Shown here: piece by piece, positions 44,078 to 64,000 of the stretch
How the letters are laid out: every line of letters starts with the position of its first letter
Numbering within the stretch: position 1 is the first letter of the stretch
Source of the DNA: an uncultured virus (IMG/VR IMGVR_UViG_3300009182_000047)
Taxonomy: Duplodnaviria > Heunggongvirae > Uroviricota > Caudoviricetes
DNA: 64,000 nucleotides
Direction: 5' to 3' (one strand)
Virus record (IMG/VR): IMGVR_UViG_3300009182_000047
Coordinates: 1-64,000 of that record
The notes under the pieces: generated by a model
Database searches by the model: none
Told to the model about the DNA's origin: nothing
Seen by the model: only the letters and a program-made list of their open reading frames with translations
Translations under genes and position numbers: made by a program

Positions 44078-45091
44078 ATGAACCTTTTTAAGAAGGTAGC
44101 AGTCTTTACAGATCTGCACGTCGGCCTTAAATCAAATTCAACGACCCATTTAAGAGACTGTGAAGAATTTGTAGATTGGTTTATCGAACAAGCAAAAGAA
44201 AATAACTGCGAGACTTGCATTTTTATGGGTGATTGGAGTCACAATAGGAATAGTCTCAATCTTGTCACTCTCAATACATCACTGACTTTATTAGAAAAGT
44301 TAGGTCAAGGGTTTGAAAAGTTCTATTGGTTTCCAGGTAATCACGATTTGTTCTATAAAGACAAGCGTGATATCCATAGCAGTGCGTTCGGACGTCATGT
44401 CCCCGGTGTGACTGTTGTCGAGGGTGTAACAACTATTGACGGAGTCACGCTTGTTCCGTGGCTAGTAGGAGATGAGTGGAAATCGATGAAGACACTTGAC
44501 AGCAAATATGTGTTTGGGCATTTTGAATTGCCCTTATTCTACATGAACGCCATGGTACAAATGCCCGACCACGGTGAGCTTAAAGCTGCTGACTTTGGAA
44601 AACCAGAGTACGTATTCAGCGGACACTTTCATAAACGACAAAGCAAAGGCAACGTACATTACATTGGTAATGCATTTCCACATAACTTTGCCGATACATG
44701 GGATGATGATCGCGGCATGATGACACTCGAGTGGGGTGGTAAGCCAGAATATATCAATTGGGATAATGCTCCTAAGTACAGAACTATTAAACTTAGCGAA
44801 TTAATTGATAAAAAAGATGAAATTATGAAGTCAAAGATGCACTTTAAAGTGAATCTAGACATTGATATTAGCTATGAAGAAGCAAACTTTATTAAAGAAA
44901 CGTTTGTTGCTGACTATGACATCCGTGAAATTAGTCTCATTCAGGATAAAACTAACCTGGACGGAACTATTGATGATAACCCAGATGCTACATTTGAAAG
45001 TGTTGATCAGATTGTATCCGAACAATTGATCAACATTGAATCTGAACAGTTTGATAAAAACGTGCTACTTACCATCTATAATAATCTATGA
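44078..45091 (+). CDS. Recombination endonuclease subunit, gp47 (Mre11/SbcD-like)
   Basis: Metallophosphoesterase motifs DLH, GD, GNHD, GHF and SGHFH. Confidence 0.92.
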   Translation: MNLFKKVAVFTDLHVGLKSNSTTHLRDCEEFVDWFIEQAKENNCETCIFMGDWSHNRNSLNLVTLNTSLTLLEKLGQGFEKFYWFPGNHDLFYKDKRDIHSSAFGRHVPGVTVVEGVTTIDGVTLVPWLVGDEWKSMKTLDSKYVFGHFELPLFYMNAMVQMPDHGELKAADFGKPEYVFSGHFHKRQSKGNVHYIGNAFPHNFADTWDDDRGMMTLEWGGKPEYINWDNAPKYRTIKLSELIDKKDEIMKSKMHFKVNLDIDISYEEANFIKETFVADYDIREISLIQDKTNLDGTIDDNPDATFESVDQIVSEQLINIESEQFDKNVLLTIYNNL

Positions 45092-46872
45092 GCTTTAACA
45101 TCAAGACAATCACAGTTAAGAACTTTCTTAGCGTGGGAAATCAGACACAGGCTGTTGATTTTGACAAGCAACATCTAACATTGGTACTGGGATCTAACTT
45201 AGATCTAGGCGGTGACGACACAGGATCGCGCAATGGTACCGGCAAAACTACAATGATCAATGCATTGAGTTATGCATTGTACGGGCAAGCCCTTACTAAT
45301 ATTAAAAAAGAAAATTTAATTAACAAGACCAATGGCAAATCCATGTTGGTCACAGTTGAGTTTGAGAAGAATGGCGTCATTTATCGTATCGAGCGGGGTC
45401 GCAAACCTAATGTTCTTAAATTATATGTCAACGATCAGGAGTTAAAATCTAAAGATTCAGAGGATGATAGCCAAGGCGATAGCCGTGAAACACAGAAAGC
45501 AATCGAGCAGATGCTGGAAATGAGTCACACTATGTTCAAGCACTTGGTTGCACTGAACACTTACACTGAGCCGTTCCTATCTATGAAGGCTGCGGAGCAG
45601 CGTGAAGTTATTGAACAACTATTGGGTATTACTTTACTAAGTGAAAAAGCAGAAGCACTTAAAACATTAATCAAAGAAAGCAAAGATTCTATACAGATTG
45701 AGACAGTTAGAATTGATGCTGTTAAAGGTGCAAATGAAAATGTGCAAAAAAGTATCGATAGTTTGCACTTAAAAAGTTCAGCATGGGAAAATAAGCACGA
45801 CAGCGAACTAGAAAATCTAGGTCGTGCCATTGTTAATCTTGAAGCTGTTGATATTGAAGCAGAGTTATCAGCACATATTGCATTGCAACAGTGGACAGAG
45901 AACAATAATAAGCTACGCGACCTAACTAGACAACGTGCAACATTGGAATCTGCTGTAGGGCAAGCTGAAAAGACTCTTAAGAAATATAAAACAGAGTTAG
46001 AAAGCCTTGGAAATAAAAAGTGTCATGCTTGCGAGCAAGAACTTCACGACCACAAGCACGAAGAAATGACTGCTACTGCTACGCAGCATTACGACGAAGC
46101 CTATGAATACTGGCAGAAGATGCGGGCACAACTTAAACAGATAACAGAAGAAATTGCTGCTGTTGGTGAGTTGCCACACAAACCTTCTACTTACTATGAT
46201 ACAGAAGCAGAAGCGTTGGGTCATAAAAATAATCTTGCCAGTTTAGAAAGATCATTAGACGCAAAGGTTGTAGAAGCCAATCCTTATAATGAGCAGATCG
46301 AAGAATTGAAAAAGACTGCGATCCAAGAAATCAACTGGGGCACTGTTAATTCACTAACTAAGCTAAAAGATCATCAGGAATTCTTGCACAAACTGCTGAC
46401 AAACAAAGATAGTTTTATCCGTAAAAAGATTATCGATCAAAACTTGAGCTACTTGAACAAGAGATTGAGCTACTATATTGATAAACTGGGTTTGCCGCAT
46501 CGTGTTATTTTTCAAAATGATCTAAGTGTTGAGATTACGCAGTTAGGACAAGATTTAGATTTTGATAATTTAAGTCGTGGTGAGAGAAACAGATTAATTT
46601 TATCTATGAGTTTTGCTTTCCGAGATGTTTGGGAAGGATTATATCAAAGCATGAACTTATTGTTCATCGATGAGCTTGTAGATGCTGGCATGGATACAGC
46701 GGGGGTGGAATCTGCACTGGCTGTATTGAAAAAAATGGCCAGAGAGAGAAATAAGAATATATACTTAATATCGCATAAAGACGAATTAGTGGGCAGAGTT
46801 AATAATGTACTTAGAGTTATTAAAGAAAACGGTTTTACCAGTTACTCAAACGATGTAGACTATGTCGAATGA
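45088..46872 (+). CDS. Recombination ATPase subunit, gp46 (Rad50/SbcC-like)
   Basis: KNFLSVGN, Walker A NGTGKT, coiled coil with CHAC zinc hook, LSRGE signature, Walker B LFIDE, ISH. Confidence 0.93.
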   Translation: MSFNIKTITVKNFLSVGNQTQAVDFDKQHLTLVLGSNLDLGGDDTGSRNGTGKTTMINALSYALYGQALTNIKKENLINKTNGKSMLVTVEFEKNGVIYRIERGRKPNVLKLYVNDQELKSKDSEDDSQGDSRETQKAIEQMLEMSHTMFKHLVALNTYTEPFLSMKAAEQREVIEQLLGITLLSEKAEALKTLIKESKDSIQIETVRIDAVKGANENVQKSIDSLHLKSSAWENKHDSELENLGRAIVNLEAVDIEAELSAHIALQQWTENNNKLRDLTRQRATLESAVGQAEKTLKKYKTELESLGNKKCHACEQELHDHKHEEMTATATQHYDEAYEYWQKMRAQLKQITEEIAAVGELPHKPSTYYDTEAEALGHKNNLASLERSLDAKVVEANPYNEQIEELKKTAIQEINWGTVNSLTKLKDHQEFLHKLLTNKDSFIRKKIIDQNLSYLNKRLSYYIDKLGLPHRVIFQNDLSVEITQLGQDLDFDNLSRGERNRLILSMSFAFRDVWEGLYQSMNLLFIDELVDAGMDTAGVESALAVLKKMARERNKNIYLISHKDELVGRVNNVLRVIKENGFTSYSNDVDYVE

Positions 46873-47167
46873 AGAGATAAACAAGTATAAGGAACTGTAT
46901 AGTCAACTGATTAGTGAATTAGTTGGCTTGCATAATACCCATGCTTCGTTTGTTAGGAATGTTGGTAGAGATACCGGCAATGCTTGTAGGAGACATCTGA
47001 GAGCAATATCAAATATTGCCACTGAATTAAAAAGACAGGGGCAAAAAGTTGGAAAAGAAAGCACAGCTAATAGAAGAGCTGAGAAGAAAGCTGCAATAGC
47101 AGAACAAGCAAGGCTTAACGCTATACCAAAAAAACGAGGCCGTAAGCCAAAAGGAACTATAAAATGA
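46862..47167 (+). CDS. Small basic protein, possible divergent Hc1-like paralog with AT-hook-like tail
   Basis: Helical core resembles the next gene. C-terminal KKRGRKPKG. Confidence 0.5.
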   Translation: MSNEEINKYKELYSQLISELVGLHNTHASFVRNVGRDTGNACRRHLRAISNIATELKRQGQKVGKESTANRRAEKKAAIAEQARLNAIPKKRGRKPKGTIK

Positions 47168-47361
47168 ATGATACTAATACACAATTACAAGCAACCTTTG
47201 CAGAATTCTTAGCTGAAGATGCAAAATTTACAGGTGGTAACTCTGCCGCTGGCACACGCTCACGCAAGGCTCTAGCAGAGTTAAGCAAGTTAGTTAAAGC
47301 CCGCCGTAACGAAATCACTGCCGAGAAGAATGCTCGCAAGGAAGCCAAGGCAACAAAATAA
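47164..47361 (+). CDS. Histone H1-like (Hc1 family) DNA-binding protein
   Basis: F..EDAKF..GNSAAGTRSRKAL.EL.KL.K..R.E matches the Hc1-family core. Confidence 0.7.
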   Translation: MNDTNTQLQATFAEFLAEDAKFTGGNSAAGTRSRKALAELSKLVKARRNEITAEKNARKEAKATK

Positions 47362-47364
47362 TCA

Positions 47365-47793
47365 ATGACTTGGACCTACAAAGGCTCTATAGTTAACGAA
47401 CTTCCTGAAGATTGTATCGGTTATGTTTACTGCATAACCAATATAACCTCAGGACGCCAATACATTGGCAAAAAATTAGCAAAATTCTCTAAAACGACCT
47501 ACAAGACGATCACGTTGAAGAACGGCACAAAAAAGAAAAAGAAGATTCGAAGCAAAATCGACAGCGACTGGCAGGAATATTACGGGTCCAGTCCTAATTT
47601 AACAGCAGATATCAACACCCTAGGCAAAGACAACTTCTCTCGCGAAATACTATACTATTGTAAATCCAAAGCAGAAACATCTTACATTGAGGCCCGCGAA
47701 CAATTCGACCGCAAAGTATTAGAATCCGACGATTACTATAACGGACATATCCAAGTCCGTGTCCATGGCTCTCACATAAAATCTAAAATTTAA
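47365..47793 (+). CDS. Stand-alone GIY-YIG endonuclease (SegE-like GIY-YIG domain)
   Basis: GYVYCITN..SGRQYIGKK, W..YYGSS, F.REIL, E...QF, YYN. Confidence 0.85.
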   Translation: MTWTYKGSIVNELPEDCIGYVYCITNITSGRQYIGKKLAKFSKTTYKTITLKNGTKKKKKIRSKIDSDWQEYYGSSPNLTADINTLGKDNFSREILYYCKSKAETSYIEAREQFDRKVLESDDYYNGHIQVRVHGSHIKSKI

Positions 47794-47799
47794 TCTAAC

Positions 47800-48170
47800 A
47801 CCAAAGGTTGGCGGGCCAGTTTGTAATACCGCTGTGGAAAAACTGGGGAATAACCAGACACGTAACATGATGATGCACTCCCGTGGGTATATCCCACCAG
47901 CCTGAAAAATTGGTCGCGAGTCTAAGAGCACGAACCCTACGCTCAACGCATTGTCATAGTATGAATGTTAGCATACGAAAAACCGTGCTATAAACACTTA
48001 GACACTAGGAACGAGGTCTAAGACGCATTATGCGAGTCGATGTAGGTTGGGAAAGATCAGAGCCCATTAGCATTACGGTAAAAACACCTATTTCCAATGT
48101 CTCGGCCTGTGATAACTCACATGAAGACAAAAAGCGGAACCGCTCAAAACGGTTCCGTCTGACCAAAATA
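47800..48170 (+). ncRNA. Candidate large structured non-coding RNA of unknown class
   Basis: Only large intergenic gap in the window. At least 12 compatible helices found by eye, including nested long-range pairs with G-U wobbles on the + strand (see findings). Confidence 0.6.
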
Positions 48171-48259
48171 ATCTACATGAATTTAAAAAGCTTCGCTGAA
48201 ACAATTGCTTCAAGTAAGAGCGTAAGCGATTACGAAGAAGCAAATGAGCGTCAGCTCAT

Positions 48260-48267
48260 TATAAATA
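48260..48267 (+). promoter_or_regulatory. T4-type late promoter
   Basis: Exact TATAAATA 30 nt upstream of ATG 48297. Confidence 0.7.
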
Positions 48268-48296
48268 AAAGAAACAACTTCTTAGGAAATCCCTTT

Positions 48297-48914
48297 ATGC
48301 GTATCACTGAATTAATAATTGAAAACAATCAAATAGATGAAATATCTCTTAAAGGTATCGGTCAAGGTCTAAGCAAGGCTGCTGATGCAGTTGGAGGTGC
48401 TGTTGGTGGCGTGCAAGGACAATGGGCTGGAATGCAAAATGTATATAATCAAAAAAGAGATAGAGTGGCGGCTGTAGCTCAAAGAAATGCAGAACAAGCA
48501 GGTGGTTATAAAAAGCCCGCCGCACCAGTTGTAGCACCTACTCCAATAGCCGCTGTTCCTCCTACTGCACCAGCAGCTAATGCGGTGCCTAACAGTGGAA
48601 CAATGTCAATTAATGGCAACAAATTAGATCCTAAGAATCCAGCTGATGCTAAAATAATTGCTCAGATACAGGCACAAGATGCACATAATGCTACCCAACA
48701 GGCTGCTCCACAACCAAGTGCAACTGCGGCACCGAGTGCCCCTCCTCGTCGTCTTGTAGGTCCAAAGGGAGTAGCCGCTGTTGAAAAAGCATACAAATCT
48801 TTACCAGATCCGCAACGTAGTCAAGCAAGACAAAGCATTGCAGCGATTGACGCAGGAGTTAAAGAAAGTTTGACTGTTGGTTATAAAAGTAATTTTCTAG
48901 GTCTAGTAATTTAA
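48297..48914 (+). CDS. Late protein, probable internal head protein (Pro/Ala-rich)
   Basis: TATAAATA and AGGA SD point to a start at 48297. N-terminus MRITELIIE..IDE has L/I-x-E motifs like gp21 cleavage sites. Confidence 0.6.
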   Translation: MRITELIIENNQIDEISLKGIGQGLSKAADAVGGAVGGVQGQWAGMQNVYNQKRDRVAAVAQRNAEQAGGYKKPAAPVVAPTPIAAVPPTAPAANAVPNSGTMSINGNKLDPKNPADAKIIAQIQAQDAHNATQQAAPQPSATAAPSAPPRRLVGPKGVAAVEKAYKSLPDPQRSQARQSIAAIDAGVKESLTVGYKSNFLGLVI

Positions 48915-49134: not shown

Positions 49135-50007
49135 TTATACGAAAAAAGTTGCAGGATCAAATACTAATGGAACGTCAATTGTTTCACCAGTGATGCCATT
49201 TGCCCTCATTTCGTCAGTAACTTGAACAGTAATTGGTTTTAAAGAATTTATTTCTCGCAATTGTTCAATGTGATTTTGAACAATATTAAAAATATCTTTG
49301 TCGGCATTGTCAATAAATTCTTTAATGTGCCTTGGATCTTCAGTGCCGCCGTTAGTTGAATCTATTTTGTAAATGCTTTTCTCAACTATACCAATGGTAA
49401 CATCTGATAGCTTGCTAAAACTTTCTTTAAATGCAGCAATTTTGTCAGCTTCACTCATTGCAGCATCGTTGGCAATTTGCAAAATCTTTTGAGTTTCAAA
49501 TGTTTTTACAGCACTTTCACTGATCTGCTTGTAGTTCAAAGGACGAACATACACAGTTAGATCTTGACTTACCTGTACAGCACTTTCCCAGGTAATGTTT
49601 TGCATTAACGAATCCATTATGGTACGTAGATCCGTTGTGTATTCCATTTCAATATCTTCTCCAAACGTAATAGGAGTTGTCATCTTTTCACCATAGGTTG
49701 CCAATCGAATTGCAATTAACAACACATCTAAATCGATACTGGGCACCATCCATGCATTTTTAATATTTGGAATACAATGTTGGATAACATCTACAACGGC
49801 CTGCCCGCTCATTACAGCATCTGGAACTTTAAGCATTAGTTCGTCTTTGGCAGTCATGGAAAACACGGGTAGTTCTCCATTTTCAGACATTTCTAAACTG
49901 CCTGCTGGCCAAAATTGTCCATTGCTGGGCAAACGAATGTAGATTTTTGGTTGCCTCATGAAAGAAGCAAGCGGGTTTGGTTGTATGTTGGTTAGGTTAG
50001 CTACCAT
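49135..50007 (-). CDS. Baseplate hub / tail assembly chaperone, gp26-like
   Basis: NPL...RQPKIY..LPS.G, V.SMTAKDE..L, D.D.LLIAIR.ATYGE. Ends DPATFFV. GGAG SD. Confidence 0.75.
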   Translation of the reverse strand: MVANLTNIQPNPLASFMRQPKIYIRLPSNGQFWPAGSLEMSENGELPVFSMTAKDELMLKVPDAVMSGQAVVDVIQHCIPNIKNAWMVPSIDLDVLLIAIRLATYGEKMTTPITFGEDIEMEYTTDLRTIMDSLMQNITWESAVQVSQDLTVYVRPLNYKQISESAVKTFETQKILQIANDAAMSEADKIAAFKESFSKLSDVTIGIVEKSIYKIDSTNGGTEDPRHIKEFIDNADKDIFNIVQNHIEQLREINSLKPITVQVTDEMRANGITGETIDVPLVFDPATFFV

Positions 50008-58411: not shown

Positions 58412-58510
58412 GTTGACTATCCAATAAATAGCTTTGTTCGCCCTTTAAGGGTTTTATGCGGTACCATCCGCGTAGATCATAGAACGATCTTAACACAAGG
58501 AGAAAATAAA

Positions 58511-59422
58511 ATGGGACGTCCAATTAAAGACAAATTTTTCGGTAGTTCAACTACCCCTTATCAAAACGCCAACGTTGGCGGCCGTACTGGTGTCGGCGGC
58601 GAAAGCGTAACATCAGTAATTGCTGTTGCTAGTTCAGGAACATTGTATTCCGCAGGTGCAACACTAGTAGTAAGCGCACCAAACATTGCAGGTGGTATCA
58701 GAGCCACTGCCACACCTACAATTAGTCTTCCTGGTATCGGCGGTATTACTGCTGTTACATTAGGTACAGCTGGAACTGGTTATACTGCAACTGCTACCAT
58801 AACAGTTACTACTGCTAGTTCTGTTACTAAAACAACAACTGGTACAATTTCAACAAATATCATTTATCCTGCAGATACAACTGGAGTTCAAGTAGGTATG
58901 AAAGTTGTTGGTACAGGTATTAACGCAGGTGCAACATACGTTACTGCTGTCTACTCAACAGGTACTGTTGTATCGGCTGCAAACGCAGGAGCAGTTAGTG
59001 GCGCAGTGGTCTTCCTTGACGCAGGTTCTGGATTTGCCGCAGTCACAGCGTTAACAACTACTACATTTAACGCTATACAAATCATCTCTTATGTTCCAAA
59101 TGGTTCAAGTGGTATCAGTGGTGGCGACATCATGAAGCAAGAAGGAAGCCGCCGTTACCTAGTTCAAAATGCACAAGGTCAAGGAATCTGCAAATTGTCT
59201 ACTGGTACATTAGTTGCTGGTGGCATGCACATTATTGCTACAGATTCTGCAGGTGACACATATTGGGTTACTAAGTTAACAAGTCGCAAAGCAAACTTGT
59301 ATCCAAGATCAAATACAGGTACATCTATCTATAGTACTATCAAAGTAGCACCATGGACAATTGGCAGTGCATCTGGTACTACTACTGGAACTGCTATTGT
59401 TTCTCTAAGCCACACAGTTTAA
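58511..59422 (+). CDS. Virion structural protein (possible head decoration/fibre)
   Basis: AATAAATA late box at 58423 and AAGGAG SD. Thr/Gly/Ala-rich, MGRPIK N-terminus, I.KQ.G.RRYLV motif. Confidence 0.7.
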   Translation: MGRPIKDKFFGSSTTPYQNANVGGRTGVGGESVTSVIAVASSGTLYSAGATLVVSAPNIAGGIRATATPTISLPGIGGITAVTLGTAGTGYTATATITVTTASSVTKTTTGTISTNIIYPADTTGVQVGMKVVGTGINAGATYVTAVYSTGTVVSAANAGAVSGAVVFLDAGSGFAAVTALTTTTFNAIQIISYVPNGSSGISGGDIMKQEGSRRYLVQNAQGQGICKLSTGTLVAGGMHIIATDSAGDTYWVTKLTSRKANLYPRSNTGTSIYSTIKVAPWTIGSASGTTTGTAIVSLSHTV

Positions 59423-60009: not shown

Positions 60010-60036
60010 AAAAAATAAATACAGTGAGGATCAAAA

Positions 60037-63000
60037 ATGGCAACTACTTACTTTTCTAATACACCGCCTGGTGCAGCATCATCAACAACGAATATTACTG
60101 TTGAAAACATTCCTAACGATTATTTTTTAAACGCTAAAGCAAAAATAAATCTCAAGTCCGGTGCTGATACTAGTATCACAGCCGGCGGAAAAGCAGAAAT
60201 TGACGCAAACAGTGATGTAAAAATAATTTCTGAAGGCGGTATTGTTGCAATTGAATCGAGTGCCGACAAAATAACTATAAAAGCAGCAACTGATGTTACA
60301 GTTACTGCTAGAGGCAAGGCTATTGTAGATGCTCCCGAAACTGATATTTTACATGATTCTGTATTAGGATCCGATGTTGGGACTGATACAACTGAATTTA
60401 AATCAAAAATTAAAAGTAATATTCTGCCTAAAGGAACTAATTATAACATAGGCGATGCTAGTAATATTTGGAAAAAATCTTTTTTTGATGAGGGAGAATA
60501 TTTTAGCGAAAATAACGTAGGCAATCAATACTTAGAATACGGCGTTAATGGCCGACCTTATAACCCAGCTGACATATATGATACTGCTGAACACAGAAAA
60601 ACTGGTGCAGTATACGTACACGGTGGTGTAGGTATTGAGAAAGATTTAAACGTTGGTGGTAGAATTTATGGTCGTATTGAAATTGCCAACACATCTTTCC
60701 AAATTGTTGTTACCGCAACAAATGCGGACATTGTATTTCATCCGTTATTTGCAAGAAGTACCGGCGAACAATTTTTATTTGTAGATATCCAAGGTATTGA
60801 CCAAGGAGGCTCAGCAGGACTGACATACAATCCCTATACTGGTAAGTTGGGAACAGAATTATTAAAAGTTGTATCCACTTCTGCTGCAAATTCAACCGAT
60901 GGTGCTGTAAGAGTTGAGGGTGGTATTAGTGTTGGTAAGAACATTGTTACTAAAGAAATTACACCCCCTGATGATGCAGATGTTGCAACAGAAATTTACT
61001 CGGTTGGTGTTAATTCTAGCCAATGGGCAGACGCATACGTACATAATTTATATACTAGGGTAATTGGTTCTACTACTGGTACAATTGAAATGCGTCCAGA
61101 TGCTGGCGTTGTTGACATGTTTAGCGATATTAGAGTAAGAGGACAGAATCCAATCGGTACTGCTCCTGTTGTTACAAACATCTTATATGTCACTATGGAC
61201 GGCGCCGATACTAATGATGGTCGCGCAATGGATCCAAGCCGGGCTTGTCGTACAATTGGGGCAGCATTGAAGAGTCCTTATTATCAGTCTGGCACACAAA
61301 TACGTGTTGCACCGGGACATTACTTAGAAGACAATCCTCTACAATTGAAACCATATACAAGTATTATGGGTTCGGACTTAAGGACATGTAGTATTGAACC
61401 AATTAATAAAACACAAGATTTATTCCATGTTAATAGCGGATGCTATCTTGCATTCATGCAATTCTTGAACGGACGTAGTGGATTGTTAGAAGGCCCATAT
61501 GATCCTCAATATAATCGAGGAGCATATTGCACATCATTTCCTCCTCTAGAAGGTGATGCACGTATTGATCTGTTCCATTCGCCATACATTCAAAACTGTA
61601 CTAATCAAAATGGTCCATGGTTAACAGATGGTACTATGTTTGTTCCAAATCAAACTGTGCAAATTCCTAGAGTTGTTGGCACAGGTACATGGATCGCTAA
61701 CACAACTACTTTGGTTATTCATGCAACTACTGGCACAATTGCTCAAGGCGATTATATTAATGCTGGACAACAAAATCCAGGATTTTTTGAAGCCCGCACA
61801 TTGATGCTAGCCAATAAACCTTTCTTGCAAGAACAAGTTGTTGCTTATGTTGATGTTACATTTAACACGAGCTCTTTTAGTTATAATGTAACAAAATGTC
61901 GTCGAGATATTGGGTTAATTTTAGACAGCATTTCTACCGACATGCTATACAACGATACTAGTGATAGCACATTTGCTGGCTTACAATATTGGAATCAAAC
62001 TAGTTCTGCTATTGCAGGAGAACAAACTACTACTACAAATGCAATTAATTATCTAAAAGGGTTAGCTGCAACTGTTGCATTAAACGCAGGTAGTTCATCT
62101 GCACAAACAAGAGTAAACACGCTGTTTACAGTTATTACTGATATTATAACCAATGGTACTGTTGGAGTAAGTGATTCGATTATTGCAAACGGATTACCTA
62201 GTACTGATCCTCAGTACACTAATGCATATACTGCTTTATTGGCAAATAAAGAAACATTTAAGACACAAGTTCTATCATGGATTGGGTCTAACTATCCAAC
62301 ATTTGTTTATAATACATCTACATGTGCAAGAGACGTTGGATACATTATCGATAGCGTAGCATTTGATGTTCTGCACTCCGGCAATAGACAGAGTATTAAA
62401 TCTGGAGTTTATTATTACAATTACAGTACAACTAGTACAACAATTGCAAATCAAATTCCACAGACTACATTAGCATATAATTTTATTAAATCAATTATTA
62501 CTAATATTGTAACTGGTATTCCGTTACCTACAGTATACCAAACAGCTACTACTCAAGTTATTATTGGCCAGCCTATAGCCAGTAGTTACGAAGCAATTTC
62601 TTTACAAAATAAAATTGATATTATAACTGATATTATTAGGCATGGTCCTAGTGTTGCAGTTAATCAAACACCCGAGTATGTTACTCTTTCGATCAATGAA
62701 GAAAAAGTAAACGCATTTAATATGTTGTTAACTAATAAAGATTTTATTAAAGCAGAAGTAATAGCTTACTTAAATAAAAACGCAAACACATTTAATTATA
62801 GTAAAGAACTTTGCTATAGAGACACTGGAATATTAATTGAAAACGTTGCATATGATGCTGCTTTTGGTGGTAATGAAAAATCCATCCAAAGTGGTTTAGC
62901 ATATTACGACGGAGTTATTAGTAGGATATCTGGACAAGAAACCCAAACTTCTGCTGCCATTGACTATCTAAGTAAAATGGTCCAGTCCATCATTGTTAAT

Positions 63001-64000
63001 AACACATGGACTAATATTTTAACGGTGCCGGCAGTTATTGCACCTTATGGCACACATAACCAAGTTAGAAACACTGTGATGACACGGGGTGCTGTTGCCT
63101 CAAGCGCAATAGATCAGTGTTTCAACACAATTACCGTTATCATTAATAACGGTCCAACAGCAGCACCTGCTATGTATAAGTCAGGCTGCCCCGATGCGGC
63201 ATTTGTCAGTGCTGAAATTTTAATGCAGGCAAATCGTAGATTTATTCAAGAAGATACAATCAACTGGATCAACAACACTGTTAAGGCATTCCCTTACAGC
63301 AGAATAAAGTGCAAGAGAGATATTAATATTATTGTTGATTCTATAGCTTACGACTTATTGTATCCTACTGCTAAGAGAAGTCAAAGTACTTTCTCAGCAT
63401 TACAATATTGGTCTCAAGGAAATTACACAGGCATTATTGAAGCTCAACTTGGCCCAACAATTGATGCAATTAAATATCTAAAAGAATTATCAGTTAAAGT
63501 TGTACAAAATATTAAACCTACTGACGACCTAGTTAATAGATATCAGTTTGTTGTTTCTCAAAATACGTCATTAGAATCTGCTAGCTCAGTAGAGGCCGCA
63601 TTAATTGCTGCAAATTTTGATATTATACTTTCCATTGTTAAAGGAAATAGCAAAGGATGGACTGACAAAATAGTTCCTAACGGACCAGAAACTAATTTAT
63701 TAGGTATTAAAAATGCTTTTAATTTATTAGAAGCTAACAAAGCATATATGGCAGCTGAAGTAATTGCATATATCACAGCAGTTCATCCTAATTTTACCGC
63801 ATATAGTACATCTACCTGTGCTCGTGATGTTGGGTTAATTACTGATTCGATTGCATTTGATTTAAAACATGGCGGTAATAGACAAGCAATTCAAGCAGGC
63901 CTAAGTTATTATTCAGTGTCTGGCTCTACAAATACTATACACGGTCAGGAAACACAAACAATTGTTGCCTTTAATAGGATTAAAGATATTGTTGATGGAA
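60037..64000 (+). CDS. Large virion structural protein with beta-helix/pectin-lyase-like start motif and CxRD repeats (3'-truncated, absent from the ORF track)
   Basis: AATAAATA (60014) and GAGGA SD before ATG 60037. Segments translated by hand are open in one frame up to the window end (~1321 codons). Contains LYV..DG.D.NDG.....ACRTI.AA...I.VAPG.Y.E..P and five CxRD repeats. Confidence 0.85.
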   Translation, partial: MATTYFSNTPPGAASSTTNITVENIPNDYFLNAKAKINLKSGADTSITAGGKAEIDANSDVKIISEGGIVAIESSADKITIKAATDVTVTARGKAIVDAPETDILHDSVLGSDVGTDTTEFKSKIKSNILPKGTNYNIGDASNIWKKSFFDEGEYFSENNVGNQYLEYGVNGRPYNPADIYDTAEHRKTGAVYVHGGVGIEKDLNVGGRIYGRIEIANTSFQIVVTATNADIVFHPLFARSTGEQFLFVDIQGIDQGGSAGLTYNPYTGKLGTELLKVVSTSAANSTDGAVRVEGGISVGKNIVTKEITPPDDADVATEIYSVGVNSSQWADAYVHNLYTRVIGSTTGTIEMRPDAGVVDMFSDIRVRGQNPIGTAPVVTNILYVTMDGADTNDGRAMDPSRACRTIGAALKSPYYQSGTQIRVAPGHYLEDNPLQLKPYTSIMGSDLRTCSIEPINKTQDLFHVNSGCYLAFMQFLNGRSGLLEGPYDPQYNRGAYCTSFPPLEGDARIDLFHSPYIQNCTNQNGPWLTDGTMFVPNQTVQIPRVVGTGTWIANTTTLVIHATTGTIAQGDYINAGQQNPGFFEARTLMLANKPFLQEQVVAYVDVTFNTSSFSYNVTKCRRDIGLILDSISTDMLYNDTSDSTFAGLQYWNQTSSAIAGEQTTTTNAINYLKGLAATVALNAGSSSAQTRVNTLFTVITDIITNGTVGVSDSIIANGLPSTDPQYTNAYTALLANKETFKTQVLSWIGSNYPTFVYNTSTCARDVGYIIDSVAFDVLHSGNRQSIKSGVYYYNYSTTSTTIANQIPQTTLAYNFIKSIITNIVTGIPLPTVYQTATTQVIIGQPIASSYEAISLQNKIDIITDIIRHGPSVAVNQTPEYVTLSINEEKVNAFNMLLTNKDFIKAEVIAYLNKNANTFNYSKELCYRDTGILIENVAYDAAFGGNEKSIQSGLAYYDGVISRISGQETQTSAAIDYLSKMVQSIIVNNTWTNILTVPAVIAPYGTHNQVRNTVMTRGAVASSAIDQCFNTITVIINNGPTAAPAMYKSGCPDAAFVSAEILMQANRRFIQEDTINWINNTVKAFPYSRIKCKRDINIIVDSIAYDLLYPTAKRSQSTFSALQYWSQGNYTGIIEAQLGPTIDAIKYLKELSVKVVQNIKPTDDLVNRYQFVVSQNTSLESASSVEAALIAANFDIILSIVKGNSKGWTDKIVPNGPETNLLGIKNAFNLLEANKAYMAAEVIAYITAVHPNFTAYSTSTCARDVGLITDSIAFDLKHGGNRQAIQAGLSYYSVSGSTNTIHGQETQTIVAFNRIKDIVDG

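Follow-up and report, generated by a model that had tools for sequence, protein, structure and literature searches.

What occupies the stretch of about 500 nt that separates a small nuclease gene from its neighbour in a T4-like phage, and does the nuclease have a part in it? The question is raised by a 64,000-nt sequence of an uncultured virus (IMG/VR record IMGVR_UViG_3300009182_000047, positions 1–64,000; here called the window), which originates from a T4-like freshwater phage and carries a GIY-YIG gene, together with the locus in question, near gp46 and gp47. The original prediction placed a new large structured RNA directly downstream of this gene. The locus is arranged as follows:

44078–45091: gp47, SbcD-like (assigned by PHROG 100)
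45088–46872: gp46, SMC/AAA
47164–47361: Hc1 histone-like protein of 65 aa (PF07432, E 4e-13)
47365–47793, + strand: single-domain GIY-YIG protein of 142 aa (Pfam PF19835 SegE_GIY-YIG, E 1.3e-32, residues 3–129; PHROG 447)
47794–48296: gap of about 500 nt after the GIY-YIG stop, holding no conserved ORF
48260–48267, + strand: T4-type late-promoter-like TATAAATA, 29 nt before the ATG at 48297
48297: ATG start of the gene that follows the gap
beyond the 48297 gene: two minus-strand genes, the second (49135–50007) encoding a T4 baseplate-family protein

Just upstream of the GIY-YIG gene, positions 46862–47361 encode two small basic proteins, the Hc1-like protein of 65 aa and, preceding it, a 101-aa protein whose stretch KRGRKPKG we take to be AT-hook-like by resemblance. 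The gap between the GIY-YIG stop at 47793 and the next credible start at 48297 is real, the latter ATG being preceded by TATAAATA, whereas the description of the genome as otherwise gap-free holds only approximately: ORFs of at least 70 aa cover 92.5% of the window, but 60010–63557 is empty. This 3.5-kb region contains no ORF of at least 70 aa on either strand and could hold many small early genes or more non-coding RNA. No tRNA or tmRNA was found in the window. A second, known orphan RNA motif is present in the same phage window, Rfam freshwater-2 (RF02980) at 58440–58513 on the + strand, which scores 57.8 bits (gathering score 49.9). Gene order around the GIY-YIG gene is kept in all 85 GIY-bearing IMG/VR loci tabulated, which stem from two homologue searches (the GIY search returned 583 relatives, of which 80 were kept), and the downstream gene differs among loci.

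The gap is non-coding, and its + strand encodes a conserved structured RNA whose core lies at 47795–48182. The RNA measures about 390 nt, or about 470 nt when the hairpins at its 3′ end are included, and its GC content is 45% compared with 37% for the window. An alignment of 79 copies with mutual identities below 97% (A1) contains about 93 invariant positions, next to a GIY-YIG gene that in marine loci is only 53–59% identical to that of the window. The longest stop-free run in A1 has a median of 74 aa across the 79 copies, and 177 of 202 gap runs in its freshwater rows are not multiples of three; the region is therefore not coding. An ATG follows ..ATCTAC in 102 of 119 loci, and the “ORFs” behind it range erratically from 2 to 55 aa. 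Folding of the single sequence is uninformative (z = −1.83 and −1.85 for the + and − strands), whereas the comparative evidence is strong: paired positions in A1 show 642 cells with changes on both sides, as opposed to 182 ± 12 in shuffled alignments (0 of 500 as high).

The RNA is common in uncultured lake and ocean phages of IMG/VR. An exact 25-nt core motif matches more than 120 IMG/VR contigs among the matches listed, but only three contigs from genomes of 185,579 species; gp46 and the GIY-YIG gene are also present in all three of these metagenome-assembled contigs, which are thus phage DNA. Among the close relatives of the window, blastn and nhmmer detected the element in a minority, and nhmmer on the loci with the core motif gave full-length matches in most. 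The window element and one marine copy had no blastn match among 50,697 deposited phage records. At gathering scores no family of Rfam 15 matches the RNA, freshwater-2 being the sole match in the window; at E-values up to 10, the segment 47300–48400 yielded three chance-level matches only, and fifteen further loci gave none. A literature search returned no account of the RNA among the matches listed. Both the covariance-model scan and the covariation across homologous loci thus bear out the proposal of a new large structured phage RNA of no known class: the RNA belongs to a family absent from Rfam, widespread in aquatic T4-like phages, modular and pseudoknotted.

The structure was derived with RNAalifold and a covariation scan of our own, counted on A1, and comprises 15 helices, three pseudoknots and 74 pairs:

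47795–47971, + strand: 5′ domain, helices 1–6, each 88–100% paired in A1
47795–47800/47966–47971, + strand: P1, pseudoknot with the P6 loop
47810–47814/47829–47833, + strand: P2
47834–47836/47859–47861, + strand: P3
47843–47846/47854–47857, + strand: P4
47868–47876/47948–47956, + strand: P5
47877–47947, + strand: clade-specific insertion inside P5, including the hairpin GTGGG 47883–47887/CCCAC 47893–47897
47959–47963/47972–47976, + strand: P6
47982–48091, + strand: central core, P7–P11 and PK2
47982–47990/48068–48079, + strand: P7
47997–48003/48016–48022, + strand: P8, loop containing the invariant GGAACGA
48024–48027/48031–48034, + strand: P9
48039–48041/48056–48058, + strand: PK2
48042–48047/48086–48091, + strand: P10, crossing P7
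48049–48051/48063–48065, + strand: P11
48099–48182, + strand: 3′ module with P12, M1, P13, the invariant GTCTGAC and M2
48099–48102/48125–48128, + strand: P12
48116–48126, + strand: M1, CTCACATGAAG, CTC plus a 7-mer
48134–48142/48150–48158, + strand: P13
48172–48182, + strand: M2, TCTACATGAAT, TCT plus the 7-mer

Under this model 95.5% of the cells in A1 are paired, compared with 83.3% in 500 shuffled alignments (none as high) and 35–41% when the model is slid by one to three columns. Changes on both sides are found at 41 of the 74 pairs (31.3 shuffled, 14–23 slid); for the individual cells with such changes, the slid controls reach 47–126. Examples in the 5′ domain are pairs 3:187 (CG 59, UA 20), 43:74 (UA 67, AU 12) and 82:171 (UA 54, CG 25), and in the central core pairs 202:372 (CG 40, GC 16), 228:244 (GC 59, AU 15) and 337:352 (CG 62, UG 8, UA 7, AU 1, GC 1). 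P10 and P11 are invariant and thus offer no covariation evidence, which leaves them unproven as helices. G-U pairs are frequent, for instance UG at 85:168 in 69 sequences and GU at 86:167 in 74, and their abundance places the RNA on the + strand. In the first pseudoknot, the 5′ end (P1) base-pairs with the loop of hairpin P6; in the second, P7 is crossed by P10; the third, PK2, joins in 3 bp the bases just 5′ of an invariant GTAGGT to the loop of P11. Variation is found in the hairpin tips, both ends of the RNA being conserved across the 79 copies. The insertion within P5 is confined to the freshwater clade, where it occurs in 14–15 of the 79 sequences; it is absent from one locus (L014) and replaced in marine copies. 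P13 was considered as a terminator and rejected, its terminator-like appearance being limited to the − strand and to the clade of the window.

The fold proposed from the window alone is partly retained, with 74% of the A1 cells paired and seven of its 14 helices supported, one restricted to a clade and six not upheld. Those retained are GCGG/CCGC (100% paired), CTGG/CCAG (88%), CTTAGAC/GTCTAAG (82%), TGGG/CCCA (98%), GCGGAACCG/CGGTTCCGT (91%), CGCA/TGCG (94.7% in the register of the new model) and GTGGG/CCCAC (100%, but in 14–15 sequences only). The closing helix AGGTTG/CAGCCT is paired in 86% of cells, yet it is clade-specific and lacks covariation. Support is missing in A1 for TTGGTCG/TGACCAA and CGAG/CTCG (61% each), CCTACG/TGTAGG (50%), GCAT..ATGT (51%), TAGCA/TGCTA (65%) and TGTGA/TCACA (57%); the failures include both long-range helices proposed to close the domains.

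The 3′ module contains a pair of motifs, M1 and M2, that lie on either side of P13 and the invariant GTCTGAC, 40–69 nt from each other. A stretch of 6–10 nt is identical between the two in 131 of the 140 loci of window type and in 63 of the 82 others, counts from a scan that is biased towards identity because it required at least five shared bases; most misses are truncated loci. The sequence itself occurs in 15 lineage-specific variants, with identity maintained within one RNA, and an unrelated phage contig (L135) adds a sixteenth, ATCATCAAGT in both copies. No complementary cis partner of the 7-mer was found between −520 and +200, and the window shows no excess of the 7-mer; an extra TCTACATGAA at 44538 lies inside the gp47 coding sequence. 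Two coding interpretations were rejected: a mini-ORF from an ATG in M1 to a conserved TGA fits 37 of 145 distinct sequences, about as expected by chance, and ORFs from an ATG in M2 are erratic. Our guess is that M1 and M2 are competing pairing partners or repeated processing sites. The switch hairpins in which they could take part are short (3–6 bp) and read by eye, and since no cis partner was detected, the idea of a switch rests on them.

Conservation continues beyond 48176 into a 3′ extension:

48189–48260, + strand: hairpins A, C and B, recognized by eye in 20 loci
48189–48197, + strand: hairpin A, weak in the window; elsewhere covarying and often with a UUCG loop
48205–48211/48237–48243, + strand: hairpin C, with the loop motif GAGCGTAAGCGA at 48218–48229
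48243–48260, + strand: hairpin B, its stem also found in a separate promoter/terminator-type scan of the locus

The hairpin C loop motif GAGCGNNAGCGA occurs in 97 of 126 distinct flanks, and the late-promoter-like motif, searched with a strict regular expression, in 60 of them. The assignment of TATAAATA follows the consensus of T4 late promoters. In 58 of the 60 flanks a hairpin of at least 6 bp (24 distinct stems) lies just before this motif; together, hairpin and motif indicate that 48297 is the correct start and that no gene begins at 48030 or 48177, where an ORF seems to open. No sigma70-like promoter was found between the GIY-YIG gene and the RNA. Contigs from RNA libraries, derived from relatives with 85–92% identity, cover 47804–47968 and 47843–48105 and leave 48132–48205 without coverage, a gap that carries no weight, while a 78-nt contig bridges the end of the GIY-YIG gene and the RNA (47755–47832). 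This is a weak hint of co-transcription, weak because RNA libraries may contain carried-over DNA.

A different RNA fills the same slot in related phages. Polynucleobacter-1, as listed by Weinberg et al. (2010; PMC2864571), has 16 representatives and a guessed role in cis-regulation. Its Rfam model (RF01718) matches 3′ of the GIY-YIG gene with 70–122 bits in 32 of the 40 loci scanned. In loci L003–L083 and others the motif begins about 10–25 nt after the GIY-YIG stop. The same model (threshold 37 bits) has no match in the window even at E-values up to 10, nor in the window-type loci L013, L014, L016, L026, L035 and L066. In Polynucleobacter-1-type loci the gap is conserved over about 372 nt, compared with 141 nt for the Rfam motif, and conservation 3′ of the motif equals that within it. 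The two RNA types share their position just 3′ of the GIY-YIG gene and the order of M1, a hairpin, GTSTGAC, M2 and then hairpins C and B, and by eye the first hairpin carries a similar GCC-type loop; however, their 5′ and central folds differ, and Polynucleobacter-1-type loci lack the core motif GTAGGTNGGGAAAG...AGAGCCCA. A search with a covariance model (CM R1, 115 positions) built on the 3′ module of window-type RNAs found L135 and 18 Polynucleobacter-1-type loci at the expected place, with individually weak matches on the latter (E 0.006–0.8) and two stray matches out of 21. The extent of conservation, the common 3′ layout and these matches suggest that Polynucleobacter-1 is just the 5′ domain of a sister RNA of about 370 nt with a common 3′ module. 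Loci L135, L066 and L220 contain the 3′ core only. In L135 this core lies in an ORF-poor stretch of about 900 nt (992–1889), with a hairpin-C-like motif beside its own M1/M2 pair, near a terminase-like ORF from 2818 onward, and no GIY-YIG gene is present.

The relation between the RNA and the nuclease is one of close and constant adjacency. As the prediction of a linkage across genomes implied, a GIY-YIG homologue lies upstream in 77 of the 78 core-motif loci with at least 450 nt of upstream sequence, and in the 61 loci with a full-length element the intervening gap has a median of 32 nt, being at most 80 nt in 49 and 209–1078 nt in nine. Inserts between gene and RNA measure about 270 nt in L013 and L026 and about 280–340 nt in L119, L172, L139, L153 and L155; that of L026 is a 93-aa ORF matching no Pfam family. 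The protein has the catalytic domain of Seg-type free-standing homing endonucleases (PF19835, E 1.3e-32) but lacks their second domain, and unlike these sporadic, mobile genes it is held in fixed synteny (85 of 85 tabulated and 77 of 78 motif loci). A phmmer search against PDB sequences gave nothing usable, and a relationship to T4 EndoII (DenA) is therefore without support.

The original suggestion was that the RNA and the GIY-YIG protein may assemble into an RNP, in which the RNA would supply the nucleic-acid recognition missing from a single-domain protein or regulate that protein. Such a partnership could explain the adjacency and the absence of any domain beyond GIY-YIG, and the 3′ module common to the Polynucleobacter-1-type RNAs in the same slot (32 of 40 loci) could be the bound part. 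The proposal finds no support, however, in how the two components are distributed. RNA type does not follow GIY-YIG similarity: genes 92–96% identical to that of the window adjoin Polynucleobacter-1-type RNA, whereas marine loci with window-type RNA carry the divergent genes of 53–59% identity. Each component also occurs without the other. L135 has the core without the nuclease, and in the three deposited phages compared, Melnitz (where the homologue follows nrdA/nrdB), P-HM2 and phiN3, the gaps after the GIY-YIG homologues are only 148, 79 and 29 nt and give no Rfam match; the nine loci with 209–1078 nt between gene and RNA likewise speak against a partnership. The suggested guide-like segment is not borne out either, since both RNA ends are conserved. 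We therefore regard an RNP with the nuclease as unlikely, and a role of the RNA as its guide as improbable judging from the sequences compared. The RNA is probably autonomous rather than a nuclease partner, and the GIY-YIG gene would be a syntenic neighbor of it; given the tight adjacency, a functional link may nevertheless exist.

Other readings place the function in cis or in the DNA. The RNA may control read-through or 3′-end formation at hairpin B as an antitermination or attenuation RNA with M1 and M2 as competing strands, or act as the 5′ leader of the downstream gene. In keeping with this account, the RNA closes an operon, with a terminator-like hairpin and then the next gene immediately downstream, and it contains the kind of identical duplicated segments that typify pairings excluding one another. 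With about 93 invariant positions and three pseudoknots, however, the RNA goes far beyond known antiterminator RNAs, the U-tract of hairpin B is poor in the window, and the downstream gene is not conserved among loci; moreover, the RNA is not the leader of the 48297 gene because the late-promoter-like TATAAATA intervenes. Control in cis accordingly keeps a small but appreciable probability. More doubtful is a DNA-level element, be it a replication origin, a primer-RNA locus or a protein-binding site, with M1 and M2 as iteron-like repeats around an inverted repeat. Concerted direct repeats do resemble iterons co-evolving with a binding protein, and the recombination nuclease genes gp46 and gp47 adjoin the locus, but the covariation over 15 helices is strand-specific and RNA-like with G-U pairs, the cumulative skew has its extremum at 42–43 kb rather than 48 kb, with no origin signal at the locus, and the 7-mer is unenriched. 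That the region is the decayed C-terminal DNA-binding half of a Seg-type gene, or another pseudogene, is scarcely credible: T4 Seg proteins have a C-terminal DNA-binding domain that the 142-aa protein lacks, yet the length of 142 aa is conserved in more than 580 relatives, and conservation pattern, indels and covariation are all RNA-like.

The explanation we favor, with somewhat better than even confidence, is an autonomous non-coding RNA with a modular pseudoknotted core, an RNA machine with an M1/M2 switch and not a guide RNA of the GIY-YIG protein. It would probably be transcribed as the tail of a rightward early unit comprising gp47, gp46, the 101-aa protein, Hc1 and the GIY-YIG gene, stopping short of hairpin B and of the late promoter that serves the next gene. 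A conserved multi-pseudoknot core (P7–P13) would be joined to exchangeable 5′ domains, that of the window in one group and Polynucleobacter-1 in its sisters. The RNA may work independently as a machine, whether as a ribozyme or as an RNP core engaging a conserved host or phage component, in which M1 and M2 might serve as alternative partners or sites of a conformational or processing switch. A bolder version, to which we give a slim yet real chance, sees a new class of ribozyme or self-processing RNA, with M1 and M2 as substrate or junction copies, or a switch with two states that some universal machinery of the host reads. If true, M1 and M2 would be, for example, cleavage-ligation sites for excising or exchanging the P13 segment of about 50 nt, P7–P13 would be the catalytic or recognition center, and the 5′ domains of the window and of Polynucleobacter-1 would be swappable specificity modules.

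Several known systems resemble parts of this locus. HEARO/IscB and TnpB omegaRNAs are nuclease-associated guide RNAs, and here, too, a structured RNA lies beside a small nuclease gene. In contrast, the nuclease is GIY-YIG only, with no RuvC/HNH effector alongside, the RNA has no variable guide end in any of its 79 copies, transposon ends are lacking, and either of the two components can be found alone. Group I introns can carry GIY-YIG homing endonuclease genes, as exemplified by td and I-TevI of T4, and the present case resembles them in that a GIY-YIG ORF of a T4-like phage accompanies a pseudoknotted RNA of 250–450 nt. However, no gene is interrupted here, the GIY-YIG ORF has its own stop with no exon continuity, and the strand order of the pseudoknots appears unlike the P3/P7/P8 arrangement; the group I intron model (RF00028) had no match at E-values up to 10. 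GOLLD, ROOL and OLE are large orphan “ornate” RNAs, partly phage-borne and, to our knowledge, of unknown function. The window RNA is likewise large, highly conserved and rich in helices, but it matches none of them in Rfam, is smaller (about 390–470 nt), keeps to a single syntenic site among aquatic T4-like phages and has the feature of identical M1 and M2.

Large RNAs that combine many invariant unpaired bases with several pseudoknots are rare and have often proved to be ribozymes or RNP cores. The present one is carried by many uncultured T4-like phages from lakes and oceans. The identity rule of M1 and M2 provides a concrete, mutable handle for functional experiments, and an orphan Rfam motif is redefined, Polynucleobacter-1 apparently being one domain of a much larger phage RNA.
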